DNA of 64,000 bases from a virus. The position numbers were made by a program, and so were the translations under genes. Positions 1 through 21,798 of the stretch are shown one piece after another (position 1 is the first letter of the stretch; every line of letters begins with the position of its first letter). The stretch lies in IMG/VR virus record IMGVR_UViG_3300025087_000641, positions 32,001 to 96,000 of that record; one strand, written 5' to 3'. The notes beneath the pieces were generated by a model, which was not told the origin of the DNA, made no database searches, and worked only from the letters and a program-made list of their open reading frames with translations.

Positions 1-558
1 GGTTGGGGCGGGAGTCTAAGCCACTTGAACAGTTTTAAGTTTAGTGGTATCCTTGACGCTCTAACCAGAGTGTTCAAACAGCGCAAGAATGTGAAGTTTC
101 TTCTGGCGGGCGATGAGAGGATTATGCCACTGTTGAAACTTCCAAGAGACAGAATAATTTTTCAACAGTATGTGATGTGGAGTGACTGGCCGAAAGTAAT
201 GGCGAAGATGGATATTGTGGTTGCGCCACTGTTCAATCGCTATGACCACAGCCGTTCTGGAATCAAGTTGATGGAATCTGCGGTGATGGGTTTGCCAGTG
301 GTGGCAACTGGGTGTCCGACTTATGAAGATTGGATGAACAAAAATATTGGCCTCTATATAAATGATGGGCCAAAAGAAGAGATGAAAGACAGGTCTGAAT
401 TGTGGGAACAGAAGTTACTCGATGTGATTGACCACTATTCAGAATACCGAGACGAGATGGCAAGCCACATAGATTACGCCATGAGTTGGGACGTGGATGC
501 CAATGTAAAGTATATTGAGAGTGTTTACAAGGAGGTCATAGAGAAAAATGACAGATAA
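1..558 (+). CDS. Glycosyltransferase (GT-B/GT4-like), 5'-truncated by window edge
   Basis: Frame 1 is open from base 1 (GWGGSLSHLNSF). Motifs DIVVAPL...RSGIKLMESAVMGLPVVAT match the GT4 C-terminal domain. Confidence 0.85.
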   Translation, partial: GWGGSLSHLNSFKFSGILDALTRVFKQRKNVKFLLAGDERIMPLLKLPRDRIIFQQYVMWSDWPKVMAKMDIVVAPLFNRYDHSRSGIKLMESAVMGLPVVATGCPTYEDWMNKNIGLYINDGPKEEMKDRSELWEQKLLDVIDHYSEYRDEMASHIDYAMSWDVDANVKYIESVYKEVIEKNDR

Positions 559-793
559 ATGCAGTCATCCTAATAAGCAATACGTTGACAAGTCTGGATG
601 GATTGTTGGACATGGATTATGTTTGGAGTGGGCTTGTCCAAACTGCGGGATACACGGATTCAAAGAGATCGAGCCTCGAAACAAGCGCGACCAAGCCATT
701 TATGATGCCAATGCCAATCTTGCATCTCTAGCATTTGCATCTCTAGCATCGAGCATATCGTTTTTTATGGGGGACGATTATCAAGATGACTGA
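548..793 (+). CDS. Hypothetical protein (CxxC)
   Basis: GGAGG upstream; overlaps both neighbours; CPNCG motif. Confidence 0.6.
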   Translation: MTDKCSHPNKQYVDKSGWIVGHGLCLEWACPNCGIHGFKEIEPRNKRDQAIYDANANLASLAFASLASSISFFMGDDYQDD

Positions 794-1025
794 CGAACCG
801 AAGAAAGAACTTCCCCCCAGTGACCAACCGTGGGGCGAAGACTTCACCACAGTTCAAGAATACATGGCGAATGTGGCGAGGATTGTGTTTGAGTATTACA
901 ATGGTCTGTGCGAGGCTGGATTGGACAAGCCAGAGGCTTTAGCAATGGCACAGTTGTTCCAACTCCAATATTGGGCGATAATTCTGAATATCATCTATCA
1001 CGGAAAGAGTAAGACAAGTGACTGA
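786..1025 (+). CDS. Hypothetical protein
   Basis: Overlaps both flanking ORFs in the operon. Confidence 0.6.
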   Translation: MTDEPKKELPPSDQPWGEDFTTVQEYMANVARIVFEYYNGLCEAGLDKPEALAMAQLFQLQYWAIILNIIYHGKSKTSD

Positions 1026-1464
1026 TTTGACAGGCGAACAGATTGACGCCATGCCTGCTGGACACGAGATGGATGTACTTGTGGCAGAGCATGTGATGGA
1101 GTGGGAACGTCTTGATTCTTGGATGGGAAGTCCTCTTGCTAAAGGATGGGATGGTTTTTGGGATGGTGAGTGGGTGAAATGGATTATAATGCCAGAATCG
1201 GACGATGAGAACAGGGCTAAATTGTGGTCTCCAAGTACAGATATTGTTGCGGCATGGCAGGTGGTGGAGAAACTTGTCGAAAACTGTGATGGAAGAGACT
1301 TCTTTATAGAATGTTGGGGTGATGGTGAATGGTTTGTTGCGTTCCATCCGATTGGATATAGTTCAAGAAAACCACAGGGTGCGTGCGATGGCAAGAAAAC
1401 CCAGAATCCATCCGCACCCTTGGCGATTTGTCGCGCCGCATTGAATTGGGCAATTGATGACTGA
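1018..1464 (+). CDS. Phage ABA-sandwich domain protein
   Basis: Motifs DVLVAEHVMEW, PSTDIVAAWQVVEKL and APLAICRAAL are typical of this family. Confidence 0.8.
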   Translation: MTDLTGEQIDAMPAGHEMDVLVAEHVMEWERLDSWMGSPLAKGWDGFWDGEWVKWIIMPESDDENRAKLWSPSTDIVAAWQVVEKLVENCDGRDFFIECWGDGEWFVAFHPIGYSSRKPQGACDGKKTQNPSAPLAICRAALNWAIDD

Positions 1465-2470: not shown

Positions 2471-2494
2471 TCCAATGTAAAAGAGAGGATACAA

Positions 2495-3301
2495 ATGGGA
2501 TATACAACGGGTGTTCAATGGACAAATCGGACTCACAATTTCTGGTATGGGTGCAAAAAGGTATCTGCGGGATGTAAGTTCTGTTATGCAGAACGCGATA
2601 TGGAGCGGTATGGACGCAATTTCAATACTGTGACTAGGGCAAAGGGATTTTATACGCCACTAAATTGGAAAGAGCCAGCACTTGTATTTGTGAATTCATG
2701 GTCAGACTTCTTTATTGAGGAAGCCGACGAATGGCGCAGTGATGCTTGGGATGTTATCTGGAAGACCCCGCATTTGACTTATCAGATACTTACCAAGCGT
2801 CCAGAGAATATCAAAGATAGACTCCCCGCCAATTGGGGATGGGGATGGGATAATGTTTGGTTGGGGGTAAGTGCAGAGAATCAGGCAATGGCAGACAAGC
2901 GCATACCAATTCTATTGTCCATTCCGTCAAGTATTCGTTTTGTAAGTGCAGAGCCGTTACTCGGAAAGATTGATCTTGGACTGTGGTGTATGGATTGCGA
3001 TGATTATATGCGTATTCATCGCGCGGAGGGCGAGCATCTAACCGATGCGGGAGATGGATTACACTGGATAATTGCCGGTGGAGAGAGTGGTCATACTCCG
3101 CGCCCATCTGATATTGATTGGTTTCGTTCTATTCGCGACCAATGCCTCTCCGCAAATATTCCGTTCTTCTTCAAACAGGTGGGCGGAAGCAAGAAAGTCA
3201 ATGGCGCATGGGGTGGGGACTTGCTTGACGGCAAAATATGGCACGAGTTTCCACAGACAAGCAAGCAGACAGAATCACAGCCAGAATTGATTAGGAGTTG
3301 A
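2495..3301 (+). CDS. Phage Gp37/Gp68 (DUF5131) family protein
   Basis: GCKKVSAGCKFCYAE, FVNSWSDFF, YQILTKRPE, NVWLGVSAENQ, WIIAGGESG, PFFFKQ. Confidence 0.92.
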   Translation: MGYTTGVQWTNRTHNFWYGCKKVSAGCKFCYAERDMERYGRNFNTVTRAKGFYTPLNWKEPALVFVNSWSDFFIEEADEWRSDAWDVIWKTPHLTYQILTKRPENIKDRLPANWGWGWDNVWLGVSAENQAMADKRIPILLSIPSSIRFVSAEPLLGKIDLGLWCMDCDDYMRIHRAEGEHLTDAGDGLHWIIAGGESGHTPRPSDIDWFRSIRDQCLSANIPFFFKQVGGSKKVNGAWGGDLLDGKIWHEFPQTSKQTESQPELIRS

Positions 3302-3302
3302 C

Positions 3303-3563
3303 ATGGCCTACTTCTTGGCATTACCCAATGGTGACGAATACACGATAGCATCGGGATCGTTTTCTGTGCGCTCAAATGCGGAGAAGTATGCAAAGAGAAT
3401 GGGATGGACTAAATATTTCATCGCCACTTCCGAACAAAAGGCAATGATAGAGAGCGGTCAACTGGTCTCATTCGGAACTGTTATTCCCATTGAGAATGTT
3501 ACCGCGCTAGTTGAGCCGGAAAAAGAATCCAAGAACAAACGCAAGCGCCATGTCTCCCGCTGA
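3303..3563 (+). CDS. Hypothetical protein
   Basis: AGGAG upstream of ATG; operon context. Confidence 0.6.
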   Translation: MAYFLALPNGDEYTIASGSFSVRSNAEKYAKRMGWTKYFIATSEQKAMIESGQLVSFGTVIPIENVTALVEPEKESKNKRKRHVSR

Positions 3564-4050
3564 ATTCTTTCTCAACCTCTCCGCCAATATAGCAGGGGAG
3601 ATAGCCTTTGCCATACTTGCAGTTGTGGCGGGACTCGTTGCGTTTCGCTATCGCAAGGCCGCCTCTGTATATCGTGCGCTAGTATCTCAAATGTGGGTAG
3701 GAAGAAAGACAACCTCACCAGACGGTAGAAGTACAGCACACGAGGCCAATGGTGAAATATATATTACCGAGAAGTCTGGTAGAATAACAAATCTGACTCA
3801 TCATCCAGCACTAGATATTCGCCCAATGTTTTCTCCCGATGGACGATGGTTGGCATTCCAAAGCAATAGGGATGGTGGGGATTGGAATGTCTATGTGGTG
3901 GATATTGCATCCCAGAAAACGGTTCAGATTACAAAAATCAAAGGAACAGAGAGAGCAATTGGATGGGACATGACGGGGCAGTTGTATGTAGACCTCGGGG
4001 GCAGCCTGCTTGTCGTCAAGTCTATTGAGTTGGAGAACAAATTGAAATGA
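3550..4050 (+). CDS. Membrane-anchored protein with TolB/PD40-like repeats
   Basis: N-terminal hydrophobic helix, then SPDGRS and PMFSPDGRWLAFQSNRDGGDWNVYVVD. Start taken at ATG 3550. Confidence 0.75.
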   Translation: MSPAEFFLNLSANIAGEIAFAILAVVAGLVAFRYRKAASVYRALVSQMWVGRKTTSPDGRSTAHEANGEIYITEKSGRITNLTHHPALDIRPMFSPDGRWLAFQSNRDGGDWNVYVVDIASQKTVQITKIKGTERAIGWDMTGQLYVDLGGSLLVVKSIELENKLK

Positions 4051-4511
4051 GCAATATTGTATATGAATGGATTATGGACAGAGACGGAAATGTTGTGGTT
4101 GGGGAACACATCTTGTCACAAGAGGAAGTAGTCGCCATATTCAGTGGTGGAAGTAGTACTAACACGACCTCAAATGGTGGAATGTTGACATGGACTATTC
4201 CCAACGCAAACAATAGTAATCAGTCAACTCCCACAGTCAAGGTTGCCCTCTATCGGCGTAGCACCCATGATGGGAAGGGGAACTACAAGCAATTCACGCC
4301 TACGCAAGAACAACTCTGGAAAGACCTTGCAGTAGTTGCGACGATGACGAGTGCACTGGCATGGAAATCTGTAGATGAGATTTTCAGAGACGCCACGGAC
4401 TATCGGAACAGAATGATAGGTGGCAAAAAGGAATACATCTCTAGGGACTTTGTTGAACAGTCATTAGAAATACTTTGCAATAATGGATTGATCGAGAAAA
4501 ACGATGCCTAA
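4047..4511 (+). CDS. Hypothetical protein
   Basis: ATGA overlap with the upstream gene. Confidence 0.6.
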   Translation: MSNIVYEWIMDRDGNVVVGEHILSQEEVVAIFSGGSSTNTTSNGGMLTWTIPNANNSNQSTPTVKVALYRRSTHDGKGNYKQFTPTQEQLWKDLAVVATMTSALAWKSVDEIFRDATDYRNRMIGGKKEYISRDFVEQSLEILCNNGLIEKNDA

Positions 4512-5214
4512 TTGTGTGGCGGTTATTCCCGTTCGGGGAAACAGCAAGGGTATTCCAAGAAAGAATCTAATTGACTTGGGCGGCAAGCCTCTATTCATGT
4601 GGACAGTTGGGGCGGCAATAGAGTCTGGCGTATTTGACAAGATTGTAGTGAGCACAGAAGATGATGAAATCATAAGTTATTGTGACAACGGGAAAGTGGA
4701 TGTAATTTTTCGCCCGCGCTATCTTTCACAAGATCATGTTCAATTGAGTGAGGTTGTGTTACATGCCTATCGGGTTATGGAGCAAGAGTGGGGATGGAAT
4801 CCAACAACGCTATGCTTGTTACAGGCGACCTCGCCACTAAGGACGGCGGGCCATATCATCAATGCCATGCGACAATATAGGGGGCGAGGGACTCTATTCT
4901 CAGCATACATTGACAAACGGTATCACTGGGCGGTGGAGGATAGAGTCGAACCAATACAGCATAATCCTGCTAGACGACTTGGCAGGCAATGGGAGCCAAG
5001 TCAAATTTATACCGAGAACGGGGCGATTTATTTCTTTCCAGCAAAACGATTTAGCCTAGAATGCACAATTAGACTAGAACCATTTGATGTCTATATTATG
5101 GACGAGGAAGATGGATTTGAAATTGATACCCCTTGGCAACTTGATATAGCAAGGCTTAGACTAGAGAAATATGGTCTGCATTTCCCGGAACTTGCGCCAC
5201 AATTAGGCCCTTGA
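4504..5214 (+). CDS. neuA: CMP-nonulosonate synthetase (NeuA/PseF family cytidylyltransferase)
   Basis: IPVRGNSKGIPRKNL, VVSTEDDEI, LLQATSPLR, ENGAIY, EIDTPWQL. Confidence 0.92.
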   Translation: MPNCVAVIPVRGNSKGIPRKNLIDLGGKPLFMWTVGAAIESGVFDKIVVSTEDDEIISYCDNGKVDVIFRPRYLSQDHVQLSEVVLHAYRVMEQEWGWNPTTLCLLQATSPLRTAGHIINAMRQYRGRGTLFSAYIDKRYHWAVEDRVEPIQHNPARRLGRQWEPSQIYTENGAIYFFPAKRFSLECTIRLEPFDVYIMDEEDGFEIDTPWQLDIARLRLEKYGLHFPELAPQLGP

Positions 5215-5246: not shown

Positions 5247-6431
5247 ATGATTATCAATAAATCATTTAAGTTCAGAGTTTATCCAACGAGAGAACAGAAA
5301 AAAGAACTCGTCAGGCAATTTGACGCATCACGTTTTGTATATAATTATTTTCTTCGCCAAAGAATTGATTTCTATGTTGCCCACAGGGGGGAGAAAAAAC
5401 AATCCCTGAATTATAATGATACTTCTGCATTGCTTACTCAACTTAAAAAACAGCCTGAATATAATTGGCTTAGGGATACAAATGCCCAATCTCTTCAACA
5501 GTCCTTACGCAATCTTGATATTGCCTATAATAATTTTTTCAATAAACGGACTGAATTTCCGAGATTCAAAAGTAAAAGGGCAAAGCAATCCTTCCATGTC
5601 CCACAATCTTTTTCGGTAAATGTTGAAAATGAACATTTAATTATCCCCAAAATAACACCACTAAAAATTGTTCTGCACCGCCATATTGAGGGGAAAATGA
5701 AGGGCGTTACCATTTCCCGCTCTCCGTCTGGCAATTATTTTGCCTCTATTCTATGTGAAGTTGAAATTAATCCGAGTCCAAAAAGTCTAGGGCACACTAT
5801 TGGATTAGACTTGGGATTGAAACATTTTGCCATTTCATCGGATGGGGCAAAAATAGATTCTCCAAGATATTTTAGGGTATCCGAGCGTAGGCTTTCACGT
5901 TTTCAGCGTAACCTTTCAAGAAAGAAAAACGGAAGTCGGGGACAAGAAAAGGCAAGATTGAAAGTAGCACGTCAGCACGAAAAGATTGTAAATCAACGCA
6001 TTGACTTCCTTCATAAATTAAGTCGTCGCTTAGTAGACGAGAGCCAAGCTATCTATGTTGAGGACTTAAATGTGAAGGGCATGATAAAGAATCGCGCCCT
6101 TGCAAAATCTATCGGCGATTCTGGGTGGGGAGAATTTGTGCGCTGGTTAGAATACAAGGGCAGATGGAATGGTTGTTATATTGGGAAAATTGATAGATTC
6201 TTTCCATCAAGCAAGCGGTGTCACAAATGCGGCTACATCTACCAGGATTTGCGACTCTCGGAACGTGAATGGACTTGCCCAGAATGCGGGAACACAGTAG
6301 ACCGTGATGAGAACGCTGCCCAGAATATTCTTATTTTTGGGGAAGAACGTAGGGCTGGGATGGCCCGAACGCATACGCGAGGGAAGATTCGTCGCCGAAT
6401 CGCTGATCCTCGAAGTCGCATGATTCTATAA
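5247..6431 (+). CDS. tnpB: RNA-guided endonuclease TnpB (IS200/IS605 family)
   Basis: FKFRVYPT N-terminus; RuvC-I GLDLGLK, RuvC-II VEDLNV, Zn ribbon CHKCG/CPECG, RuvC-III DRDENAA. Catalytic D/E/D residues are intact. Confidence 0.95.
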   Translation: MIINKSFKFRVYPTREQKKELVRQFDASRFVYNYFLRQRIDFYVAHRGEKKQSLNYNDTSALLTQLKKQPEYNWLRDTNAQSLQQSLRNLDIAYNNFFNKRTEFPRFKSKRAKQSFHVPQSFSVNVENEHLIIPKITPLKIVLHRHIEGKMKGVTISRSPSGNYFASILCEVEINPSPKSLGHTIGLDLGLKHFAISSDGAKIDSPRYFRVSERRLSRFQRNLSRKKNGSRGQEKARLKVARQHEKIVNQRIDFLHKLSRRLVDESQAIYVEDLNVKGMIKNRALAKSIGDSGWGEFVRWLEYKGRWNGCYIGKIDRFFPSSKRCHKCGYIYQDLRLSEREWTCPECGNTVDRDENAAQNILIFGEERRAGMARTHTRGKIRRRIADPRSRMIL

Positions 6432-6464
6432 TGCGACAATTCACATTATGCCAGAAGAGGATGG
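6346..6464 (+). ncRNA. Predicted TnpB omegaRNA (scaffold plus guide at about 6445-6464); 5' end approximate
   Basis: GGGCTGGGATGGCCC stem; terminal hairpin GTCGCAT-N9-ATGCGAC then AATTCAC (TTCAC at 6440-6444), resembling an IS200/605 right end. Confidence 0.75.
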
Positions 6465-6561
6465 GCGGGAGATAGACGCTCAATGGGAGCTTGATGTGGC
6501 GAGGTTGAGATTTGAGAAGTACGGGTTACATCATCCAGACACAACGCCCATTTTGGAATAA
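6445..6561 (+). pseudogene. Orphan second copy of the neuA 3' end (38 codons plus stop)
   Basis: Reads IMPEEDGREIDAQWELDVARLRFEKYGLHHPDTTPILE*, 25/38 identical to the NeuA C-terminus. Its stop lies 2 nt before the next ATG. Confidence 0.9.
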
Positions 6562-6563: not shown

Positions 6564-7046
6564 ATGCTAACACTTTCGCCAATAACGCTAAAAGAAACGG
6601 AGAGGATTTGGCAACTCAGAAACGATGTTGCCACGAGGCGCGAGTTTGGGATACCTGTAATCTCATATGCTCAGTGCCTAGATTGGGTGGCGACTGTCAC
6701 CGACAGAAAGACTCCCGAATATGTGTTCCTCGTCAGAGATGCCAAGATGGGGAATATCGGTCTTATCATTCTGGAGAAACACGGCGCAGAAATTGAGATT
6801 CATGTTACAATAGACCCTGCCCATCGAGTACGCAGGGGATATGGCAAACAGGCGATAAAACTAGCAACCGACTGGGCATTTATGAATGGCGCAGACAGGG
6901 TAGTTGCCAACATCCGAGAAGAAAATTACAAAGGACTCTTTGCATTTGAGTCCTCTGGGTACAAAGAAGTCAGAAACTATCTTGGGCCGAGGAATATATC
7001 ATACTTTGAATACGAGATAAGAAATGACCAGAAGAAGAAATACTAA
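6564..7046 (+). CDS. GNAT N-acyltransferase (PseH-like)
   Basis: IWQLRND, DPAHRVRRGYGK, IREENYKGLFAFESSGY; pseudaminic acid pathway context. Confidence 0.8.
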   Translation: MLTLSPITLKETERIWQLRNDVATRREFGIPVISYAQCLDWVATVTDRKTPEYVFLVRDAKMGNIGLIILEKHGAEIEIHVTIDPAHRVRRGYGKQAIKLATDWAFMNGADRVVANIREENYKGLFAFESSGYKEVRNYLGPRNISYFEYEIRNDQKKKY

Positions 7047-7851
7047 TATAGACAGACATTGGGATGAAATTACATGGTTATATCTAAATAATTTTGAATC
7101 AACTGTATCATTGGGAGAAAAATTTAGCGTACATGCATCAACTATAGAGAGGCGATTGAAACAGAGTGGTATTCCTGTAAGGCCAGGCGGGAATCTTACT
7201 GAAAATCACACAGCCTTTGATGAAATTAATCCAGATATGTTGTATTGGCTTGGCTATTTGGCTGGAGATGGATGTGTTACACACAATGCAAATGGAATAT
7301 TATCAATCATTTCAATAACAAGCATTGATATTGAACATATTGATAAATTTCTACATTTCCTGTCATCGCATTCCAAAATAACACGGCGCGAAAGCGAAAT
7401 AAATGGCAAGAAATATGTTGTTCATGGGGCAAAAATTACATCTGAAAGAATCGCAAATAGACTTGTTTTTCTTGGGGTAACTCCAAGAAAATCAAGAACC
7501 ATTTCAATATGCCAACAATCCATAGTTTCGACGGTTGATTTTCTGCGTGGTATAATAGATTCTGACGGTTCATTAACTATAACGGCTGATGGATTTACCC
7601 CGACGATAAGCATTTACACCAGTAGCGGGAAATTCTCGGAACAACTCTCTCTTGGTTTCAATGAAATGTTTGGAGAGACATGTGGGATATATTATGACAA
7701 AAGGGGGTCTGGAGCATACCAAGTCGCACTACATGGAAAGAGAATATTGCCCATCTTGCATAGATTATATTCGGGAGACGACATATCATTAAACAGAAAA
7801 AGGGATATTGCATTAGATGTTTTGGAAAGGTTTGGATATGCCCAAATTTGA
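7024..7851 (+). CDS. Free-standing LAGLIDADG homing endonuclease
   Basis: Two motifs, YWLGYLAGDGC and FLRGIIDSDGS; HTH-like N-terminus; AT-rich. Confidence 0.9.
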   Translation: MTRRRNTNIDRHWDEITWLYLNNFESTVSLGEKFSVHASTIERRLKQSGIPVRPGGNLTENHTAFDEINPDMLYWLGYLAGDGCVTHNANGILSIISITSIDIEHIDKFLHFLSSHSKITRRESEINGKKYVVHGAKITSERIANRLVFLGVTPRKSRTISICQQSIVSTVDFLRGIIDSDGSLTITADGFTPTISIYTSSGKFSEQLSLGFNEMFGETCGIYYDKRGSGAYQVALHGKRILPILHRLYSGDDISLNRKRDIALDVLERFGYAQI

Positions 7852-8731: not shown

Positions 8732-8958
8732 CAGATTATCCCGGTTCAACTGGCGGTGGGCGATACTGCGAAACATGCCATACATGGATTCCGTGGGGGA
8801 CATTCCATTTTCACCCGGAGCCGATACAGGTGCAACCACCTCAATTGCCACCCATGCCACAAATTCAATTTTGCGACAGTAGGATAGTTCCACTTCTTGA
8901 GCGCATTATCGTTGCACTTGAGAAAATTGTCTCCATACAAGAAAGTCAACGTGGATGA
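8728..8958 (+). CDS. Hypothetical Pro-rich protein (CxxC)
   Basis: ATGA overlaps at both ends. Confidence 0.6.
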   Translation: MTDYPGSTGGGRYCETCHTWIPWGTFHFHPEPIQVQPPQLPPMPQIQFCDSRIVPLLERIIVALEKIVSIQESQRG

Positions 8959-14068: not shown

Positions 14069-14174
14069 TAAATTGGAAGACGACATCAGGCTATCAATCA
14101 TTGCGTATATCGCCAGACTCATTCTGCTTCTTATAGGTTTTTCAATCTTTGTGAGGTTGTTCCCGCCAAAATGA
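14040..14174 (+). CDS. Small single-TM peptide (44 aa)
   Basis: MKQDPKGPFDKLEDDIRLSIIAYIARLILLLIGFSIFVRLFPPK; stop overlaps the gmhA ATG. Confidence 0.55.
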   Translation: MKQDPKGPFDKLEDDIRLSIIAYIARLILLLIGFSIFVRLFPPK

Positions 14175-14740
14175 AACGTCAAAATATAATAGAGTCGTCG
14201 CTAAAAGACTCTGCAACAGCGATGCTCTCTCTAATTCCCATAGTTCCATTTTTAGACAAATTTGCACAATCGGTTATAGAGACGTTTGACTCCGGAAACA
14301 AGATTATCGTCATTGGCAATGGCGGGAGTGCGGCGGACGCGCAACATTTTGCAACAGAGATGGTGGTGAGATATAAAAAAACTGGAATTGCGCTTCCCGC
14401 GATTGCACTGACGACTGATACAAGCATTCTGACAGCGACAGGAAACGACATCAACTTTGACCAGATATTTGCGAGGCAAGTTGAGGCGCTTGGCAGACGA
14501 GGCGATATGCTGTTAGCGATAAGCACAAGCGGAAACTCGCGTAACATTCTGAGGGCAGTTGAGGTTGCAAAGAATCTGAGTCTGTTCTGTGTGGCATTGA
14601 CTGGCAAAACTGGGGGGCGGTTATCGCAACTCTGCCACATGGTAATCAAAGTACCGCAGAATGCCACAAGTCGTATTCAAGAGGCGCATATTGCCATCTT
14701 ACATGCGGTATGCGAGGTGGTAGAAAGCCAGAAAAGATGA
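14171..14740 (+). CDS. gmhA: Phosphoheptose isomerase (SIS domain)
   Basis: GNGGSAADAQHF, LPAIALTTD, TATGND, FARQVEAL, ISTSGNS, RIQEAH. Confidence 0.92.
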   Translation: MKRQNIIESSLKDSATAMLSLIPIVPFLDKFAQSVIETFDSGNKIIVIGNGGSAADAQHFATEMVVRYKKTGIALPAIALTTDTSILTATGNDINFDQIFARQVEALGRRGDMLLAISTSGNSRNILRAVEVAKNLSLFCVALTGKTGGRLSQLCHMVIKVPQNATSRIQEAHIAILHAVCEVVESQKR

Positions 14741-14853
14741 GACGGATGCTGATTGAACTCATCATTTGGTTGATATTGGCGATTATCATAATTGTTGGCA
14801 TTGGACTCTTTGGTTGGGACACATGCGGCGGTCTGGTTTGGTGGTGCATATGA
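14737..14853 (+). CDS. Small single-TM peptide (38 aa)
   Basis: MRRMLIELIIWLILAIIIIVGIGLFGWDTCGGLVWWCI; ATGA overlaps at both ends. Confidence 0.6.
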   Translation: MRRMLIELIIWLILAIIIIVGIGLFGWDTCGGLVWWCI

Positions 14854-15671
14854 GTCTCGGAATAATGCAGGGACGCCTTGTCCCACCAATAGATGGCAAA
14901 CTACAGGCATTCCCCACAAATGGGTGGAACAAAGAACTAGAGATATGTCGAGGATTGGACGTTGCATATATTGAGTGGATTTATGATGGCGAGGACTTAT
15001 ACTTTTTGCCAAATCCAATCTCAACATTTGAGGGTGCAAATGCGCTGAGTGGGATACAGTCTCCTCGTATCGCGTCTCTGTGTGCTGATTACTTTGTGAA
15101 AGCGCCACTGCTGAGAGTGCCAGGGAATATTCTAGAACAGAGAATAGCAAAACTCAGATGGCTGGTTTTTCAATGCAGTCTTGCAAATATTCCCACTCTT
15201 GTTCTCCCATTTGTGGACGATAACGCGATTCGCACACACGGCGAAATTGATGATGTCATTTGTATTCTCTATGAACTTTCTGGATTAATTGACGCCTGTA
15301 ATGTCAGGATTGCGCTAGAAACAAATCTTGACGAATGTGATATGCAGACTCTTTCGCGTGAATTGGTAGATGTGTTTGTTGGAATAAATTACGACTCTGG
15401 AAATAGTGCATCGCTTGGTTATGATGTTGAAAAAGAATGGAATATGTATGGACATCGCATTGTCAATGTCCACATCAAAGATAGAGTCCTAAAGGGTAGC
15501 AGTGTGCCACTTGGCGAGGGCAGTACCAATTTTGATACACTGGCAAAGATGCTGTCTAAATTCAATTATCGCGGCAATGTAGTCTTACAGGTGGCGCGGG
15601 GAGAGTCGGGCAAAGAAGTTGAGTGGTATCACAAGAACAGGAACTTCCTGCTTGACAAGGGCATCGGATGA
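14850..15671 (+). CDS. Sugar-phosphate isomerase/epimerase (xylose isomerase-like TIM barrel)
   Basis: GIMQGRL, IALET, NYDSGNSAS, VHIKDR, VPLGEG. Start taken at ATG 14850. Confidence 0.88.
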   Translation: MSLGIMQGRLVPPIDGKLQAFPTNGWNKELEICRGLDVAYIEWIYDGEDLYFLPNPISTFEGANALSGIQSPRIASLCADYFVKAPLLRVPGNILEQRIAKLRWLVFQCSLANIPTLVLPFVDDNAIRTHGEIDDVICILYELSGLIDACNVRIALETNLDECDMQTLSRELVDVFVGINYDSGNSASLGYDVEKEWNMYGHRIVNVHIKDRVLKGSSVPLGEGSTNFDTLAKMLSKFNYRGNVVLQVARGESGKEVEWYHKNRNFLLDKGIG

Positions 15672-15796
15672 ATACATTTGGGGCAGACTTCATCATCGTC
15701 TTTGTAGCATTAGTGCTGGCATGTTCAATCGGCGCATTTGTGAAACTTGTCCATGATGTTGTAAAAGGCAATAATGATTCCGCAAAGTCGTCATAG
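15668..15796 (+). CDS. Small single-TM peptide (42 aa)
   Basis: MNTFGADFIIVFVALVLACSIGAFVKLVHDVVKGNNDSAKSS; ATGA overlap with the upstream gene. Confidence 0.5.
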   Translation: MNTFGADFIIVFVALVLACSIGAFVKLVHDVVKGNNDSAKSS

Positions 15797-16856
15797 CATC
15801 ACCCGCGAGGACATCAAATTTGTTGGCAAGGCTCTTGCTGGCGACTTTCTGACTCGCGGGCCATTGACACTTGAGTTTGAGGCAAAGATAGCCGAATTGT
15901 GTGGCAAGAAGTATTGTGTCACAATGGCAAATGGGACAGTCGCCCTCCATGCCGCGCTATTGGCCTGCAATGCGAAGCATGTAGTCTCTCCAACTCTGAC
16001 ATTCTCTGCTATCGCCAACGCTACACACTTCGCTGGTGCTAAACTCTATCTCACAGATGTAGACTCATATAAACTCCATGCCACAACGTACAGCCAACCC
16101 CTTCCCGCGAAAGGGCTTGTTTTCGTTCCGATGGACTACGCTGGTCTGCCTTATAATCTGGACTCTTCTGGATTGGGGGCTGGCTATACTACTGTCATCC
16201 GTGATGCGTGCCACTCATTTGGGGCAACGATTAATGGAGAGTCGCATGTCAAGCGCGATGATATGGCCGTCTTTAGTTTTCATGCTATAAAGACAATATC
16301 ATCTGGAGAGGGGGGATGTGTCGTAACCGATGGCGAAGAATACGCCACAGAACTTCGGAGAATACGGAACAACGGACTAGAGAATCATCAACAGCATCGG
16401 TTTGGATTGAACTACCACATGAGCGAAATTGAGGTAGCACTTGGATTATCGCAGTTGAAACGACTTGACAAGATATTGGAGAGACGAAGAGAACTGGCAA
16501 GTAAGTATATTGAGCATTGGGCAGGACAATACGACAGAATTACTTTGCCCGCCGACGATAATGGTCATGCCTATCATCTATTCGTTATCCGCCTTGCCGA
16601 CTCTGTAAAAATAAAACGAGACACATTCCGAAGAGAACTTGCCGATATGGGCATTGGAACACAAGTCAACTATCGCCCCCTCCACAGACAACCCATTGTG
16701 GCGTCAGTAATTGACTCTGCGCTCACTGAGTTTCCGAACGCTGATTGGGCATGGGAACGAATGCTGAGTATCCCACTATACTATGGATTGACAGACAATG
16801 AACAGAAGGTGGTCATGAAAGCCATAGATAGACTGTTGGATAAACATGCCAAATAA
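15774..16856 (+). CDS. pseC: PLP-dependent UDP-sugar aminotransferase (DegT family, PseC-like)
   Basis: MIPQSRHSI..DFLTRGP, NGTVALH, DACHSFGA, FSFHAIKTISSGEGG, GLNYHM. Confidence 0.85.
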   Translation: MIPQSRHSITREDIKFVGKALAGDFLTRGPLTLEFEAKIAELCGKKYCVTMANGTVALHAALLACNAKHVVSPTLTFSAIANATHFAGAKLYLTDVDSYKLHATTYSQPLPAKGLVFVPMDYAGLPYNLDSSGLGAGYTTVIRDACHSFGATINGESHVKRDDMAVFSFHAIKTISSGEGGCVVTDGEEYATELRRIRNNGLENHQQHRFGLNYHMSEIEVALGLSQLKRLDKILERRRELASKYIEHWAGQYDRITLPADDNGHAYHLFVIRLADSVKIKRDTFRRELADMGIGTQVNYRPLHRQPIVASVIDSALTEFPNADWAWERMLSIPLYYGLTDNEQKVVMKAIDRLLDKHAK

Positions 16857-17646
16857 TCTATTTGACCTCACTGGCAAGGTGGCGATCATAACTGGCGGGG
16901 CAGGATTGCTTGGGCAACAGCACGCCGAGGCAATTGCGGCATTCGGCGGATGTCCGGTGATTCTGGACATTGATTATGATGCGGCCAGAAACATTATCAA
17001 GGAAATCGGCGTGGGGTTTGCGTTTGAATGTAATGTGACGCGCCCCCAAGATATTTATGATACGTTGAATGAAACACTTACGCTACGCGGGCATGTGGAT
17101 ATTCTCATCAACAATCTCTCTTGTAATGCCAATGTTGAATCTTTGGGACAATATTCACGCCTTGAATTCTATCCATATTCACAATGGGCAAAGGACTTGG
17201 AACTCGGATTGGGAAGTGCATTCCTATGTAGTAAAATAATTGGCAGTCACATGGCAGACAAAGGCAAGGGGGTGATTGTCAACATCGCCTCAGACCTCTC
17301 CGTGATAGCGCCAGATCAGAGGCTCTATCACAAAGAAGGACTTGCTGATGAGGAGCAGCCCAAAAAACCAATTTCTTATTCTGCAATAAAGCATGGTATT
17401 ATTGGGTTAACTCGCTACCTTGCGACATATTGGGCGGGTAGAGTTAGGGTAAATGCCATAAGTCCTGGTGGAATATTTAATAATCAGCCAGATGATTTTG
17501 TGCGACATATTAGCGACAGAATCCCAATGGGGCGCATGGCACGGGCAAATGAAATACAGGGAACATTGGTCTTTCTATGTTCTGATGCGTCATCATATAT
17601 GACTGGGCAAAATATTATTGTGGATGGCGGAAGGAGTATTTGGTAA
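16846..17646 (+). CDS. SDR oxidoreductase (PtmA-like, nonulosonate-cluster type)
   Basis: TGGAGLLG, APDQRLY, YSAIK, RVNAISPGG, VDGG. Confidence 0.88.
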   Translation: MPNNLFDLTGKVAIITGGAGLLGQQHAEAIAAFGGCPVILDIDYDAARNIIKEIGVGFAFECNVTRPQDIYDTLNETLTLRGHVDILINNLSCNANVESLGQYSRLEFYPYSQWAKDLELGLGSAFLCSKIIGSHMADKGKGVIVNIASDLSVIAPDQRLYHKEGLADEEQPKKPISYSAIKHGIIGLTRYLATYWAGRVRVNAISPGGIFNNQPDDFVRHISDRIPMGRMARANEIQGTLVFLCSDASSYMTGQNIIVDGGRSIW

Positions 17647-18146
17647 TGAGGAAAATAGAATTATCAAGAGGATATACTTCTGACATTGATGATGAGGATT
17701 ATGAATGGGTATCCCAATACAAATGGAATGTTTCACTGTGTAACCATACCCAATATGCTTATAGATATTCTTACAAGCCGAATGGGACTGGGGCGAAGAA
17801 ATACATGCACCGCGAGATAATGGAAAGATATAACGGGGCATTAGGGAGTGGTATGCAGATAGACCATATAAATCACGATGGACTGAACAACAGGAAAACA
17901 AATCTTAGGATATGTACCCAGTCCCAAAACAATTGGAACGGGAGGGGGATTTTGGAGGGAACCTCAAAATACAAGGGAGTATACTTTTACAAAAGTCGCG
18001 GGAAATGGGTTGCACAAATGTGCCTTTTCGGGAAGCGCATTTTCATTGGTAGATTCGACAGCGAAATTGATGCGGCAAGAGCATATGACAGAGTAGCAAA
18101 AGAAAAGTATGGAGAATTTGCGAAACTGAACTTCCCGGAGGAATAA
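17646..18146 (+). CDS. HNH-AP2 homing endonuclease
   Basis: MHREIM, IDHINHDGLNNRKTNLR, SKYKGV, FDSEIDAARAYD, GEFAKLNF. Confidence 0.92.
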   Translation: MRKIELSRGYTSDIDDEDYEWVSQYKWNVSLCNHTQYAYRYSYKPNGTGAKKYMHREIMERYNGALGSGMQIDHINHDGLNNRKTNLRICTQSQNNWNGRGILEGTSKYKGVYFYKSRGKWVAQMCLFGKRIFIGRFDSEIDAARAYDRVAKEKYGEFAKLNFPEE

Positions 18147-18943
18147 TGACGATGGATTTATTGGCTTCTAATTTATTCTCCGTGGCGGGGAAGACAGCCC
18201 TTGTCACTGGGGCAAATGGTTATTTAGGACAAGTGGTGGCAGGAGTCCTTAAACAGAATGGTGCAAGTGTTATTGGGACTTATGCAACAAAAATCCCAAC
18301 AGATGGATTCTGTGATGAGTGGTATCTGATTGATTCAAATTCGCCATATCCAGACTTGGAAGAAAGATTGCGCGAAATTGAATCTAATAACCAAATAGAT
18401 GTCCTTATCAACAACGCGCATCCCATGAAACGCGAGGCTGGATTCAATGTTGAGACAGACCAAATAGAACACTATTCACGGGCAGAATGGCAACAGAACA
18501 TCAATGGCGCTATTGGACTCCCGGCACTCACAACATCAATCATTGGGGCGGGGATGAAAGATAGAGGGCATGGTAGTATTATCAACATCAGTAGCATGTA
18601 CGCCCTCGTTGCCCCCCATCCAAATTTGTACAAAGATACGCTATACATGAATCCGCCCGGATATGGGGCAAGCAAGGCGGCTCTACTTGAGTTTACTCGC
18701 TATGTGGCGGCATTCTGGGGACAGTATGGAGTGCGGTGTAATGCCCTGTGTCTTGGCCCATTCCCGAAATCAATTACACCAGAGATGCAAGAGTTCATCA
18801 CGCGGTTGAACTCGCGCACTTGTCTTAATAGAACTGGCAGGGCAGGGGAGATAGCTGGAGCAATTCTATTTCTGGCGAGTGAGGCATCGTCATACATGAC
18901 GGGCCATGCCCTAGTCCTCGATGCTGGATGGTGTGCCACATGA
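18146..18943 (+). CDS. SDR oxidoreductase (second paralog)
   Basis: TGANGYLG, LINNA, SSMY, YGASK, VRCNAL. Confidence 0.88.
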   Translation: MTMDLLASNLFSVAGKTALVTGANGYLGQVVAGVLKQNGASVIGTYATKIPTDGFCDEWYLIDSNSPYPDLEERLREIESNNQIDVLINNAHPMKREAGFNVETDQIEHYSRAEWQQNINGAIGLPALTTSIIGAGMKDRGHGSIINISSMYALVAPHPNLYKDTLYMNPPGYGASKAALLEFTRYVAAFWGQYGVRCNALCLGPFPKSITPEMQEFITRLNSRTCLNRTGRAGEIAGAILFLASEASSYMTGHALVLDAGWCAT

Positions 18944-19113
18944 CTTTTCCGAAGTCCCCCAATGTGCCATTTGTCCAATCGGTTATCTTTGTCATGTCTC
19001 ATGTTGGCTATCCATATTGGGATGATGTGGTTTTGAATCCAACCAGTGCTAAGGCGCTTGGTCTAAAACTTATTGAATACGCAGGCGAATGGATAGAGGA
19101 AAAGCGTGACTAA
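18940..19113 (+). CDS. Hypothetical protein
   Basis: ATGA overlap; fills the gap between SDR and TylF. Confidence 0.5.
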   Translation: MTFPKSPNVPFVQSVIFVMSHVGYPYWDDVVLNPTSAKALGLKLIEYAGEWIEEKRD

Positions 19114-19963
19114 TCCCTGTGTCCATTGCAACGAGAATGAGTCAGACTTTGACACATACCTCTGCAAGAAATGTGCCGAGGACTTTCAGGTTACACCACA
19201 AACAACGAGGGATTTCTATGGCTTTCTGGCTAGAACGGGAAGGTCGTATCTAACATCGTATTTGTCAAGGCCAGACCAAGAACAGGGGAAGCCTCACGAT
19301 TATATCTTTGCCGCGCCTGCCGCAAGTTTTCACCACGCTAGACGATTCAATTTCTTTACTCGCATGGCAGAACTTGTGCGAGGTGTTCCGGGGGACATTG
19401 TGGAGTGTGGCGTAGAACATGGGCAGACATTACTATATTGGCTATCCATTGCATTTGACGAATTGACGCCACGAAATGTATGGGGATTTGACTCTTTCGC
19501 CGGGCCAGAAACAGTTGGAGAGAAAGATAAGAATTCTAATGGCGACATATATCCGCCCCTTCCGAATGTCTATGCTAGGGCAACCGAGGGATTTATCAAT
19601 CTCCTGAATGCCTATGGACTTCCTCGTATTTGGACGAACTCACATTTAGTCGTCATACCCGGCTTTTTCTCTGAGACTCTGAAAGATTATAGGGGCGAGA
19701 AGATAGCGATTCTTCACCTTGACGCGAACTACTACGACAGTTACAAAACTTGTATGGAGATGCTGTGGCCGAAAGTGGCCCGTGGTGGAGTTGTAATTTT
19801 TGATGAATACCAAAATCAAAATGATACTCTACACTTTGCTGGTGCAAAACGCGCAATAGACGAATATATGGAAACACTCAAGGATGACGGAACGACAATC
19901 ACGAGGGACAAAATGTATGGCAAATTCTATTGCATCAAGGGAGGCATTCAATGGCGGATTTAG
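19106..19963 (+). CDS. TylF/MycF-family O-methyltransferase with N-terminal Cys cluster
   Basis: GDIVECGV, GFDSFAG, LHLDANYYDS, GGVVIFDEY, GAKRAIDE. Confidence 0.9.
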   Translation: MTNPCVHCNENESDFDTYLCKKCAEDFQVTPQTTRDFYGFLARTGRSYLTSYLSRPDQEQGKPHDYIFAAPAASFHHARRFNFFTRMAELVRGVPGDIVECGVEHGQTLLYWLSIAFDELTPRNVWGFDSFAGPETVGEKDKNSNGDIYPPLPNVYARATEGFINLLNAYGLPRIWTNSHLVVIPGFFSETLKDYRGEKIAILHLDANYYDSYKTCMEMLWPKVARGGVVIFDEYQNQNDTLHFAGAKRAIDEYMETLKDDGTTITRDKMYGKFYCIKGGIQWRI

Positions 19964-20835
19964 TTATCGGCGGTAGCCCAATTGGGGACGGACACCCAGT
20001 AATTTGTATAGGAGAGGAGGGTATAAATCATCAGGGCAATATAGATATTGCCAAGAAACTTGTTGATGTTTGTATTGAGGCAGGTTGCAATGCTGTCAAG
20101 ATGCAATCTCGTACAGTTGATGTAGTTTATTCGGAAGAGGAACTTTCCAGGCCGAGAGAGTCGCCCTTTGGAACAACAAATGGAGACTTGAAACGCGGTC
20201 TTGAATTGGGGAGGAAAGAATATGACGAATTTGATGCTTACTGCAAATCAAAGAGTATGACATGGCTTTCCTCATGTTGGGATGAAGCGTCTGTTGATTT
20301 TATTGCACAATACAACCCACCATGTTTCAAGATTGCCTCTGCCTGTATCACGGATGATAACCTGCTAAGACATCATCTACAATATCATAAGCCACTCATT
20401 ATCAGTACGGGGATGACAACTTTGCGCCAAATTGACCATGCCATTGAAATTGTCGGGACTGACAATGTTGCCCTAATGCATTGCATTGGAGTTTATCCGG
20501 CTGATCCGAGGACTCTAAACCTTCGTGTTATCCAAACACTGAAAGAGCGGTATAATGTTCCCGTTGGATGGAGCGGACATGAAGTAGGACTCGCTACAAC
20601 CGTTGCGGCTGTGGCGATGGGTGCAAATCTTGTTGAGAGGCATGTCACATTGGATAGGGCAATGTTCGGCTCAGATCAGTCGGCCTCGGTAGAACCCCAG
20701 GGATTGAAAAGACTTGTCAGGGATATTCGGGTTGTTGAAGATGCAATGGGGGATGGCGTAAAACGAGTATTGCCTGCCGAGTCTGTTGTGGCAAATAAGT
20801 TGCGCCGTGTTGACACTCTGAAACAGGAGGGGTGA
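19951..20835 (+). CDS. neuB: Nonulosonate synthase (NeuB family, second copy)
   Basis: EEGINHQG, FKIASA, ISTGM, LMHC..YP, VGWSGHE, VERHVTLDRAMFGSDQSASVEP; GGAGG RBS. Confidence 0.92.
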   Translation: MADLVIGGSPIGDGHPVICIGEEGINHQGNIDIAKKLVDVCIEAGCNAVKMQSRTVDVVYSEEELSRPRESPFGTTNGDLKRGLELGRKEYDEFDAYCKSKSMTWLSSCWDEASVDFIAQYNPPCFKIASACITDDNLLRHHLQYHKPLIISTGMTTLRQIDHAIEIVGTDNVALMHCIGVYPADPRTLNLRVIQTLKERYNVPVGWSGHEVGLATTVAAVAMGANLVERHVTLDRAMFGSDQSASVEPQGLKRLVRDIRVVEDAMGDGVKRVLPAESVVANKLRRVDTLKQEG

Positions 20836-21269
20836 TGACTGGGCGACCAGATCTGACGTTTCAGATTTCCGAGAGTGACAATGAGGTTTATGATGTCATG
20901 CGGGATTTGGCACAACGACTTGGCCTGACCGAGTTACGGACGAGTCCCATGACGATGGTGAGTTGGACTGCGCCCGCGCCAATTGTAGAAACTCCTCCAC
21001 CATCCAATCCTCAACCATCTCGAAATGCCCCATACAAGTTGGCAACACGAGTGCCAACACGCATTCAGTTTGTTGGAGAAGTCAATTGCTGGGTTGCGCC
21101 AGACCCAAATTCGCGCAAGTTGACTTTTACTGACAATCGGGAGGTGGACATCTTCGAGGAGAGAGATACCGAGTTGTTTGGAAAGTGGTGGTGCGTACTC
21201 CATAAAACATTGCCGAGTGGTGAACTGTTTGAATTATGGATTCCGGCTGCGTATTTTGTTCTGTTCTGA
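20832..21269 (+). CDS. Hypothetical protein with Pro-rich linker and possible SH3-like C-terminus
   Basis: APAPIVETPPPSNPQP linker; C-terminal ELWIPAAYF. Confidence 0.55.
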   Translation: MMTGRPDLTFQISESDNEVYDVMRDLAQRLGLTELRTSPMTMVSWTAPAPIVETPPPSNPQPSRNAPYKLATRVPTRIQFVGEVNCWVAPDPNSRKLTFTDNREVDIFEERDTELFGKWWCVLHKTLPSGELFELWIPAAYFVLF

Positions 21270-21273
21270 AAAG

Positions 21274-21798
21274 ATGATTAAGGTCGCAATATTCGATACC
21301 GATGGAGTTATGTCCGATGGCGCAGTAATCTACCTCGATGGTGGGGTGCGAGGCAGAGTCTTCAATGTCAGAGATGGACAAGGGATTACCAATCTAAAGC
21401 ACGCCGAGGTATCTGTCTGGCTAGTCAGTGGCGAACAAGACTCTCATCTGTTTGACCGTTCCGAGAAGTTGGGCGTAGACCAATTGTTTGGATTGCCAGA
21501 CAAACGCAGAGTCCTAGAGGAACTTCCGCTTGACATAAACAACGACGAAATAGCATTCATGGGTGATGACATTGGGGACATTCCGCTGCTGATGATGGTG
21601 GGTATGCCTGCGTGCCCACAGGACGCTCACCGTGACGTTGTGAACTGCGTTGTTAGTCTACGTGGGTTTGTCGCCACAAAAAATGGCGGCAAGGGGGCAG
21701 TACGAGAGTTCTGCGACTATATATTGACAAGAAACAGACTCGATACTGCCCCAGAGTATATGCGAGAGATTGGAGAGTTGAAAAACGCATTGGAATAG
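21274..21798 (+). CDS. HAD phosphatase, KdsC/YrbI (Kdo8P/Kdn9P-type)
   Basis: FDTDGVMSDG, FNVRDGQG, AFMGDDIGD, GGKGAVRE. Confidence 0.9.
   Translation: MIKVAIFDTDGVMSDGAVIYLDGGVRGRVFNVRDGQGITNLKHAEVSVWLVSGEQDSHLFDRSEKLGVDQLFGLPDKRRVLEELPLDINNDEIAFMGDDIGDIPLLMMVGMPACPQDAHRDVVNCVVSLRGFVATKNGGKGAVREFCDYILTRNRLDTAPEYMREIGELKNALE

Follow-up and report, generated by a model that had tools for sequence, protein, structure and literature searches.

Nonulosonic acids such as pseudaminic acid (Pse) and legionaminic acid (Leg) are regarded as sugars of the bacterial surface that are important for motility, for evading the immune system and for recognition by phages. Among phages, two kinds of case are known, the retailoring of a host-made sugar and the glycosylation of virions with ordinary host nucleotide sugars. 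Mycobacteriophages provide the precedent for the second kind and reportedly glycosylate their virions with transferases of their own (a finding attributed to Freeman et al. 2023). The first kind is seen in Acinetobacter baumannii prophages, whose EpaA and EpaB enzymes, the latter of the classical short-chain dehydrogenase/reductase (SDR) type, retailor host-made pseudaminic acid (PMC12053666). The subject of this analysis is a sugar gene island in an uncultured tailed phage of ~105 kb, known from a single virus record of 105,404 bp (IMG/VR record IMGVR_UViG_3300025087_000641). The window is the 64,000-nucleotide stretch at positions 32001-96000 of that record, and the island, on the + strand at genome 26348-53798, comprises the left 21.8 kb of the window together with 5.6 kb upstream (~27 kb). 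Gene calls were made with Pfam and NCBIfam hidden Markov model searches and a PDB sequence search (phmmer), and membrane segments were predicted with a hydropathy scan. The gene content points to a phage-owned glycan factory with two ulosonate branches, the acceptor being most likely a protein made in the infected cell and probably a virion protein; a probability of roughly one half is given to this reading.

As in the mycobacteriophages, the phage carries its own glycosyltransferases and, as in the A. baumannii prophages, it encodes enzymes that would act on Pse-type sugars, including an SDR of the adh_short_C2 type. The prophages, however, only retailor a sugar that the host has made and the mycobacteriophages, as far as is known, use ordinary host nucleotide sugars, whereas a whole de novo pathway, with two synthases and an activation step, is encoded here. 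A comparison with the bacterial pathway to cytidine monophosphate (CMP)-pseudaminic acid of the Helicobacter/Campylobacter type finds a homologue in the island for all six chemical steps. The NCBIfam models that the corresponding proteins match best are those of PseB, PseC and PseF, and the GxGH motif of PseG is kept. The differences are the tailed-phage carrier, scores below the cut-offs, no PseH match, a formyltransferase as the conserved acylase, synthases without a SAF domain whose scores are slightly higher for NeuB than for PseI, and no Maf or flagellin gene.

A second set of genes resembles the routes to 2-keto-3-deoxynononic acid (KDN) and 3-deoxy-manno-octulosonic acid (Kdo), in that a synthase gene is linked to genes for a KdsC/YrbI-family phosphatase and a cytidylyltransferase. 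It departs from those routes in the substrate-pocket motif of the synthase, NeuB2, which is its own, and in the company of a GmhA-like isomerase, a TIM-barrel enzyme and PtmA-like SDRs. The closest described transferases are Tanf_01245 and TFUB4_00887 of Tannerella forsythia, in which a TagB-type domain is combined with an HP motif and a D/E-D/E-G motif (PMC5420450). The 416-residue GT-B enzyme of the island, GTB416, is likewise soluble; it too contains a nucleotide-binding domain of the TagB/TagF type together with an HP motif, and its gene lies beside a nonulosonate pathway. In this case, however, the match to the family is partial (48.6 versus 200 bits), NeuC-type 2-epimerases are no less similar in fold, and nothing resembling the host-type O-glycosylation machinery was seen.

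Ownership and age of the island

The first 126 bases of the genome are repeated exactly at 105257-105382, showing that the contig ends overlap and that the assembly closes on itself. After the overlap, up to position 105404, there are 22 further bases that repeat bases ~65-90 as the reverse complement, and this assembly scrap is probably the reason why the record is listed as linear in IMG/VR and has a CheckV completeness estimate of 85%. The minus-strand arm of the window, from 21822 to ~62700, codes for tail proteins, a tail tube (34757-36139), a head-tail adaptor, a major head protein (47857-49344), a prohead protease, a portal and a large terminase, which identifies the record as a tailed phage. 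No close relative was found among 50,697 deposited phage records, and megablast of the island against GenBank phages gave zero matches.

A scan of IMG/VR with a NeuB alignment recovered 53 viral loci, two of which lie in complete phages of similar size. These related phages, G001 and G002, are compared throughout with the phage studied here (G000). The capsid protein and terminase of G001 (99,998 bp, CheckV 99%) are 57% and 59% identical, respectively, to those of this phage, and the capsid protein of G002 (101,465 bp, direct terminal repeats, CheckV 100%) is 51% identical. The gene order in both relatives is as here, with GTB416, GT2, GT4, PseB, PseC, PseF, formyltransferase and NeuB1, then NeuB2, and in both the block abuts the same distal tail genes as in this phage. 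The position of PseG is taken by a PseG-like gene in G001 (35% identical) and by an unassigned 270-residue gene in G002, and a KdsC gene follows NeuB2 in G002 and is not in the G001 island. PseC, NeuB2, GTB416, GT2 and GT4 are all kept in both, and the island proteins are 31-52% identical to those of the relatives (G001/G002: PseB 52%/35%; PseF 43%/41%; NeuB1 45%/38%; formyltransferase 38%/34%). The shared order and these levels of identity indicate that the island predates the split of the three phages. In addition, homologues of the PseG-like protein, NeuB1 and NeuB2 that are 70-98% identical are spread across many metagenomes, indicating that close relatives of this phage keep these genes.

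Composition was compared next. The relative synonymous codon usage (RSCU) of the sugar genes tracked that of the structural genes (r = 0.90) as well as the structural genes tracked the early ones (r = 0.87), and the tetranucleotide correlation was 0.97. Three selfish genes, TnpB among them, were set apart (GC content 0.39, RSCU r ~0.62). An initial interpretation from the letters of the window, here called the sequence-only reading, had proposed a phage-domesticated pathway and not a freshly captured host locus, and the self-closing contig, the presence of the same core in G001 and G002 and the shared codon usage bear this out. An assembly chimera or a flank of host chromosome is ruled out, as far as can be judged from sequence, by the end overlap, the synteny in two complete relatives and the composition. 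The island appears, then, to be an old and vertically inherited phage property.

The extensive tailoring described in the same reading is real, but it appears to be a recent layer over the older core, as about ten enzymes are missing from the G001 and G002 islands. The genes absent there are those for the GNAT, the histidine phosphatase, the extended SDR, the Methyltransf_23 enzyme, the ATP-grasp ligase, the GmhA-like isomerase, the TIM-barrel enzyme, SDR1, SDR2 and the TylF-type methyltransferase. Some of the phage-specific tailoring genes recur beside NeuB2-like genes in unrelated viral contigs, and a homologue of the TIM-barrel enzyme adjoins NeuB2-like genes in viral contig L005.

Gene content and candidate branches

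The genes are listed below in window positions. Positions prefixed L004 or L003, here and later, are coordinates on other stretches, and those prefixed L001 are genome coordinates.

L004:7348-8598, + strand: GTB416, 416-residue GT-B enzyme, upstream and outside the window
L004:9389-10642, + strand: GT2 glycosyltransferase, 417 residues (PF00535, 9e-22)
Within the transferase block upstream of the window, + strand: DNA methylase (Pfam)
1-558, + strand: C-terminal half of the GT4 glycosyltransferase, 376 residues, whole gene at L004:12428-13558 (Glyco_trans_1_4, 4e-14)
1018-1464, + strand: phage ABA-sandwich domain protein (PF18066, 7e-14)
1454-2470, + strand: PseB-like UDP-GlcNAc 4,6-dehydratase (PF02719, 1e-77; TIGR03589, 333 bits)
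2495-3301, + strand: DUF5131 (phage Gp37/Gp68) protein (PF07505, 4e-72), not in the G001 and G002 islands
3511-4050, + strand: small PD40 (TolB-like beta-propeller repeat) protein (PF07676, 4e-12)
4504-5214, + strand: PseF/NeuA-like cytidylyltransferase (PF02348, 1.4e-19; TIGR03584, 100.6 bits)
5247-6431, + strand: IS605-family TnpB (OrfB_IS605, 1e-27; Cas12f1-like TNB, 3e-23)
6564-7046, + strand: GNAT N-acetyltransferase (Acetyltransf_3, 4e-13)
7024-7851, + strand: free-standing LAGLIDADG homing endonuclease (PF14528, 5e-11)
7817-8731, + strand: NeuB1, SAF-less NeuB-family ulosonate synthase (PF03102, 7e-49)
8955-9533, + strand: histidine phosphatase, branch 1 (PF00300, 5e-52), specific to this phage
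9661-10407, + strand: PseG-like UDP-sugar hydrolase candidate (TIGR03590, 3.4e-13, partial)
10394-11293, + strand: extended SDR of nucleotide-sugar epimerase/reductase type (PF01370, 9e-29; weak NCBIfam matches to heptose 6-epimerase and GalE)
11587-12510, + strand: S-adenosylmethionine methyltransferase, Methyltransf_23 (PF13489, 1e-27)
12483-13076, + strand: sugar N-formyltransferase (PF00551, 8e-19; matches to ArnA-type and dTDP-amino-sugar formyltransferases)
13073-14068, + strand: ATP-grasp ligase, carbamoyl-phosphate-synthase-like PRK12767 type (NF009405, 2e-70; PylC-like_N and ATPgrasp_Ter domains)
14171-14740, + strand: GmhA-like SIS sugar-phosphate isomerase (TIGR00441, 193 bits, cut-off 209; NF010546, 203 bits, cut-off 276)
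14766-15671, + strand: xylose-isomerase-like TIM-barrel sugar(-phosphate) isomerase/epimerase (PF01261, 4e-12; weak matches to L-ribulose-5-phosphate 3-epimerase)
15774-16856, + strand: PseC-like sugar aminotransferase (PF01041, 1e-75; TIGR03588, 275 bits)
16846-17646, + strand: SDR1, classical SDR, PtmA-like (NF006619, 164 bits; FlagModPtmA, 103 bits)
17640-18146, + strand: HNH-AP2 homing endonuclease (PF13392, 8e-13; AP2, 3.5e-10)
18146-18943, + strand: SDR2, classical SDR, 31% identical to SDR1 (PF13561, 2e-29)
19106-19963, + strand: TylF-type sugar O-methyltransferase (PF05711, 3e-23)
19930-20835, + strand: NeuB2, SAF-less NeuB-family synthase (PF03102, 2e-74; NeuB_NnaB, 240 bits)
20832-21269, + strand: 145-residue protein between NeuB2 and the phosphatase (no Pfam and no PDB sequence match)
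21274-21798, + strand: KdsC/YrbI-family HAD phosphatase (phmmer against PDB: 4NAV, 1.9e-25)
51430-52338, - strand: second TylF-type methyltransferase, in the head-assembly block (PF05711, 8e-26)

All of the enzyme classes named in the sequence-only reading were located on the + strand of window 1-21798, and these include homologues for the six steps (PseB-, PseC- and PseG-like genes, GNAT, NeuB and a PseF/NeuA-like gene). Two details needed correction: the NeuB gene is present, but as two divergent paralogues that are 24% identical (7817-8731 and 19930-20835), and the HAD phosphatase is real but begins at 21274, not at 21178. The phage and selfish genes said to lie between the sugar genes (ABA sandwich, DUF5131, LAGLIDADG and HNH-AP2) were found there together with TnpB at 5247-6431, which had not been listed. 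None of these inserted genes interrupts a sugar gene, and the GNAT, both SDRs and the PseF-like protein match their models end to end. TnpB is inserted at the 3' end of the cytidylyltransferase gene, immediately beyond its stop codon, and a recoded second copy of the last ~38 codons of that gene lies 3' of TnpB, at ~6442-6558 (IMPEEDGREIDAQWELDVARLRFEKYGLH... versus IMDEEDGFEIDTPWQLDIARLRLEKYGLH...); the insertion therefore seems to have brought or kept a replacement 3' end, leaving the gene intact. TnpB was of no help in naming a host, its best matches being ~50% identical and scattered across many phyla. A promoter and terminator scan gave no signals above chance that would delimit operons.

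Branch A would begin with the PseB-like dehydratase and the PseC-like aminotransferase, followed by N-acylation, the PseG-like hydrolase and NeuB1, with CMP finally attached by the PseF-like enzyme. The presence of this Pse-type branch is assigned by homology. The best NCBIfam match of the PseB-like protein was the PseB model TIGR03589 (333 bits, cut-off 407.75) as opposed to FnlA (206) and LegB (66), its best PDB match was Helicobacter pylori PseB (2GN4, 2.5e-71), and the SxDKA and YGATK motifs are kept. The PseC-like protein likewise matched the PseC model TIGR03588 best (275 bits, cut-off 423.5) as opposed to ArnB (191) and LegC (143); its top PDB matches were ArnB, not PseC, and the motif FSFHAIK with the pyridoxal-phosphate lysine is kept. 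For the PseF-like protein the best match was the PseF model TIGR03584 (100.6 bits against a cut-off of 205.7), and it ran over essentially the full length of the profile (positions 1-219 of 222). The PseG-like protein gave a partial match to TIGR03590 (49.8 bits, cut-off 153.55 bits) and had no PDB match by single-sequence search. Its GLGH motif is invariant in 17 homologues, and its AlphaFold2 model, which is weak (predicted local distance difference test score, pLDDT, of 62), matches GT-B folds in general only.

The N-acylation step is one at which the island departs from the bacterial pathway. The GNAT at 6564-7046 has no match to a PseH model in NCBIfam, and its gene is absent from G001 and G002, making it a possible PseH substitute specific to this phage. 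The formyltransferase is kept in both relatives, where the GNAT is missing, and on that ground it, and not the GNAT, is taken as the conserved N-acylase of the lineage. Hence the sugar of the lineage is more likely to be N-formylated at the position that PseH would acetylate, and branch A would end in a 5,7-diamino nonulosonate of the Pse type that is activated with CMP and probably carries an N-formyl group.

NeuB1 and NeuB2 both lack a SAF domain, keep two metal-binding histidines (His217 and His238 in NeuB1) and are present in all three phages. NeuB1 falls in a small clade whose members are unnamed proteins from metagenomes, and scored 178 bits with the NeuB_NnaB model versus 158 bits with PseI, both under cut-off; it probably catalyses the condensation step of branch A.

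NeuB2 is likely to be the condensing enzyme of branch B, which gene linkage suggests would pass through a phosphorylated intermediate. The protein (240 bits with NeuB_NnaB) is a member of a very large, well-conserved family of ~290 residues, throughout which the motif KIASA[CS]xTDD stands in place of the canonical KIxSGE in the substrate pocket; this altered motif is only a hint of a phosphorylated substrate. The phosphatase encoded two genes 3' of NeuB2, and directly after NeuB2 in G002, keeps the DxDG motif and matched E. coli KdsC (1e-20) and 3E81/3E8M (3e-19) in the phmmer search of the PDB. The PDB labels the 3E81/3E8M chains 'acylneuraminate cytidylyltransferase'; we take them to be the KDN-9-phosphate phosphatase of Bacteroides thetaiotaomicron. 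The NeuB2 orthologue of two Anaerolineae genomes is preceded by a gene in which a cytidylyltransferase and a HAD phosphatase are fused. This linkage of NeuB2, phosphatase and cytidylyltransferase argues for the logic of KDN and Kdo synthesis, in which NeuB2 would condense phosphoenolpyruvate with a sugar phosphate and the KdsC-type phosphatase would then strip the phosphate before CMP activation.

NeuB2 is 61-68% identical to many proteins, Anaerolineae ones included, and homologues that are 50-61% identical were found in 6 of 101 sampled Anaerolineae genomes. The identity to Anaerolineae proteins (61-64%) is a hint only of the source of the gene. PtmA-like SDRs that are 37-46% identical to SDR1 are encoded near NeuB2 orthologues in Anaerolineae, and one Anaerolineae NeuB2 locus also has a GTB416-like gene and a Wzx flippase. 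The GmhA-like isomerase and the TIM-barrel enzyme are candidates for supplying or modifying the sugar phosphate that NeuB2 would use in this phage. The GmhA-like isomerase might even feed the branch with a heptose phosphate, which would lead to a ten-carbon ulosonic acid. A GDP-heptose pathway was considered for this isomerase and rejected, since Pfam and NCBIfam scans of the larger open reading frames of the island found no heptose kinase or nucleotidyltransferase.

GT4, GT2 and GTB416 have no predicted transmembrane segment, and these soluble enzymes would together assemble a short glycan capped with an ulosonate. The sugars would be decorated by SDR1, SDR2, the extended SDR, the two methyltransferases, the ATP-grasp ligase and the histidine phosphatase. 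GTB416 is probably the CMP-ulosonate transferase. It had no PDB match by single-sequence search, and its family profile matched TarL (6e-21) and Cps3D (5e-13) ahead of epimerases (3e-10 to 1e-4). The NCBIfam family BFO_1060 (NF046086) was matched partially (6e-13, 48.6 bits, cut-off 200), and TIGR04396 also matched weakly. BFO_1060 is orthologous to T. forsythia proteins that knock-out and complementation have shown to be needed for adding a Pse or Leg derivative to the O-glycan (PMC5420450). An HP pair (H287-P288) is nearly invariant in the GTB416 family, a QEG motif is present, and the gene is always grouped with GT2 and GT4 in the three phages.

Acceptor of the glycan and rival explanations

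The island is expected to work in the cytoplasm of the infected cell. The sequence-only reading had reported no wzx/wzy or exporter gene in the window, in agreement with the hydropathy scan, which saw no polytopic membrane protein there. Upstream, the island starts at genome position 26348 and holds extra glycosyltransferases, again with no polytopic membrane protein. Searches of the whole genome gave no match to an initiating phosphoglycosyltransferase (Bac_transf, PF02397) or, at E <= 0.01, to the Maf domain (MptE-like, PF01973), and no match to a Wzx-type flippase (PF13440) was found in G000, G001 or G002. Maf-type flagellin glycosylation was rejected on the absence of any PF01973 match genome-wide, and a Wzx/Wzy-type locus on the absence of PF02397, of PF13440 and of any polytopic membrane protein in the island. 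Because no genes for lipid-carrier initiation, a flippase or a polymerase were found in this phage or its two relatives, a protein acceptor, probably one of the virion, is favoured.

A virion target is also suggested by the position of the island, which always abuts tail genes, by the second TylF-type methyltransferase in the head block, and by the absence of a tyrosine integrase from whole-genome searches of this phage and G002. The second methyltransferase is 36% identical to the island TylF, and its gene is flanked by those for the prohead protease/scaffold and for a DnaB-like helicase (52359-53783); a link between it and the island is possible. The richness of virion proteins in Ser and Thr noted in the sequence-only reading holds for the small virion proteins (20-25% Ser/Thr versus a median of 11.7%), and this is weak evidence for a virion target. 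Directly downstream of the major head gene, at 46926-47354 and 47363-47788 on the - strand, lie genes for tandem paralogous Ser/Thr/Gly-rich proteins of ~141 residues, which are 81-91% identical in a related contig fragment (L011). These could be decoration proteins and glycosylation targets. In its most specific form, the proposal is that a ~100-kb phage lineage coats its own particles with a glycan bearing an N-formylated Pse-type sugar and a second ulosonate, made through a phosphorylated intermediate by the widespread and uncharacterised SAF-less NeuB family; this version is rather doubtful.

Several observations weigh against a two-branch factory acting on virion proteins. The first concern the pathway, which the sequence-only reading had called a complete pseudaminic pathway. 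This is too simple: each of the six steps does have a homologue, but every Pse-pathway match is under the NCBIfam curated equivalog cut-off, the GNAT is without a PseH match, neither NeuB is best as PseI, both scoring higher on NeuB_NnaB and under both cut-offs, and there is a second, KDN/Kdo-type branch. Only one cytidylyltransferase was found for the two proposed branches. In NeuB1 of this phage, two otherwise conserved histidines are replaced (SNH to SNA and LHC to LWC), for which reason its activity is not assured and its function may have drifted; a relative that is 89% identical keeps the histidine of SNH, while the change of LHC to LWC is common to the three closest relatives. The remaining observations concern the acceptor. 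A tyrosine recombinase is encoded in G001, which means that some phages of the lineage may be temperate, and surface conversion is usual in temperate phages. A membrane glycosyltransferase, GT-C, is encoded elsewhere in this phage. The GTB416-like gene next to Wzx in bacteria and the action of the T. forsythia enzymes on a surface glycan point by analogy to host-type lipid-linked assembly. On the choice between a virion protein and the host surface as the target of the glycan, the evidence points both ways.

The strongest competing explanation is remodelling of the host envelope. The soluble transferases would in this case add sugars to host lipid-linked or nascent surface glycans (lipopolysaccharide, capsule, S-layer or a general O-glycan), which the host flippase and ligase would export, and the altered receptor landscape would bring superinfection exclusion or spare released progeny from adsorbing to debris. 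GTB416 falls in the family of the T. forsythia Pse/Leg transferases, which serve a general surface O-glycosylation system (PMC5420450), its Anaerolineae relative adjoins a Wzx flippase, and prophage enzymes retailor pseudaminic acid in Acinetobacter capsules (PMC12053666). The secreted or anchored PD40 protein inside the island, which has one transmembrane or signal segment (residues 19-47) and a 37% identical homologue in the G001 island, fits the same explanation, as does the recombinase of G001. GT-C is a further point in its favour: this protein of 378 residues, with ~11 predicted membrane segments and no Pfam match, is encoded at genome 1592-2728 next to the RtcB RNA ligase gene and was placed with the GT87/PMT-type GT-C membrane glycosyltransferases by a protein atlas (score 0.98). 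GT-C, the only polytopic protein, lies ~24 kb from the island. It is, however, absent from both G001 and G002 although they keep the island. None of the three phages yielded a flippase, polymerase, ligase or initiating transferase, searches of this phage and of G002 brought up no integrase, and ~27 kb would be a costly outlay for a transient surface change in a phage without sign of lysogeny. Envelope remodelling is accordingly a serious contender that falls short of being the probable one.

It is unlikely that the island makes one product instead of two, either with NeuB1 and NeuB2 as subunits or alternates of one step, or with GTB416 as a NeuC-like hydrolysing epimerase that feeds NeuB2. If GTB416 did feed NeuB2, the products would be one Pse-type and one Neu/Leg-type sugar, and no phosphorylated intermediate would be involved. 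This explanation would account for the keeping of both SAF-less paralogues in three phages, for the single cytidylyltransferase and for the lack of a KdsC gene in the G001 island. It also draws on the predicted model of GTB416, which is of high confidence (pLDDT 95.7), according to which the enzyme could be NeuC-like: the closest folds are NeuC and UDP-GlcNAc 2-epimerases (Foldseek 1e-15; Z 26), ahead of TagF, TarL and TagF-like capsule polymerases at Z 22-23 (TagF Z 22.8), and there is a weak Pfam match to Epimerase_2. On the other hand, the GTB416 profile fits TagF-like transferases far better than 2-epimerases (6e-21 versus 3e-10 to 1e-4), NCBIfam groups the protein with the BFO_1060 transferases, and its gene is always in the transferase block and not beside NeuB2. 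NeuB2, for its part, is linked to a HAD phosphatase here, in G002 and in bacteria.

Finally, DNA hypermodification, in which sugars on modified phage bases would block host nucleases, is highly improbable: phage glycosyltransferases are said to put diverse glycans on DNA (a report ascribed to Pyle et al. 2024) and a DNA methylase gene lies within the transferase block of this phage, but that gene is missing from the G001 and G002 islands, no thymidylate-synthase-type hydroxymethylase (PF00303) was found in the genome, and we know of no ulosonic acid on DNA.

Occurrence and other features of the phage

A NeuB2 homologue was found in 3 of 50,697 deposited phage records, namely in two uncultured large viruses and one doubtful Moritella contig, and in no cultured phage. 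Despite this small number, the 53 IMG/VR loci with NeuB suggest that phage-made nonulosonates are common in nature, and they look to be missing from the literature searched. In that literature, with many subscription titles outside its reach, no description of a complete phage-borne nonulosonate pathway was found; pseI has been reported as a virome auxiliary gene (PMC6359870). The present case stands out for its two synthase branches, a TagF-like transferase in place of Maf and a rich tailoring layer.

The long retention by a tailed phage lineage of a pathway to make, activate and transfer such sugars suggests a viral use, which may be the stabilisation or masking of particles or the reprogramming of receptors. 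If the glycan is indeed placed on virion proteins, this would amount to a virus-made 'sialylation' of virions. The island also offers functions that can be tested for three groups about which little is understood, namely the large SAF-less NeuB2 family, the BFO_1060/TagF-like transferases and a set of tailoring enzymes of possible use in glycoengineering.

The phage codes for at least three DNA methyltransferases and also for an Mgm101/Rad52-type annealing protein, an RtcB ligase and a sigma-70-like factor (L004:959-2308, L001:416-1588 and L003:6445-7146). In G001, the RtcB gene lies directly 3' of NeuB2. The large terminase match of G001, at 71359-74001, is interrupted by ~1.2 kb inside a single open frame of 887 residues, and this interruption looks like an intein or another in-frame insertion.

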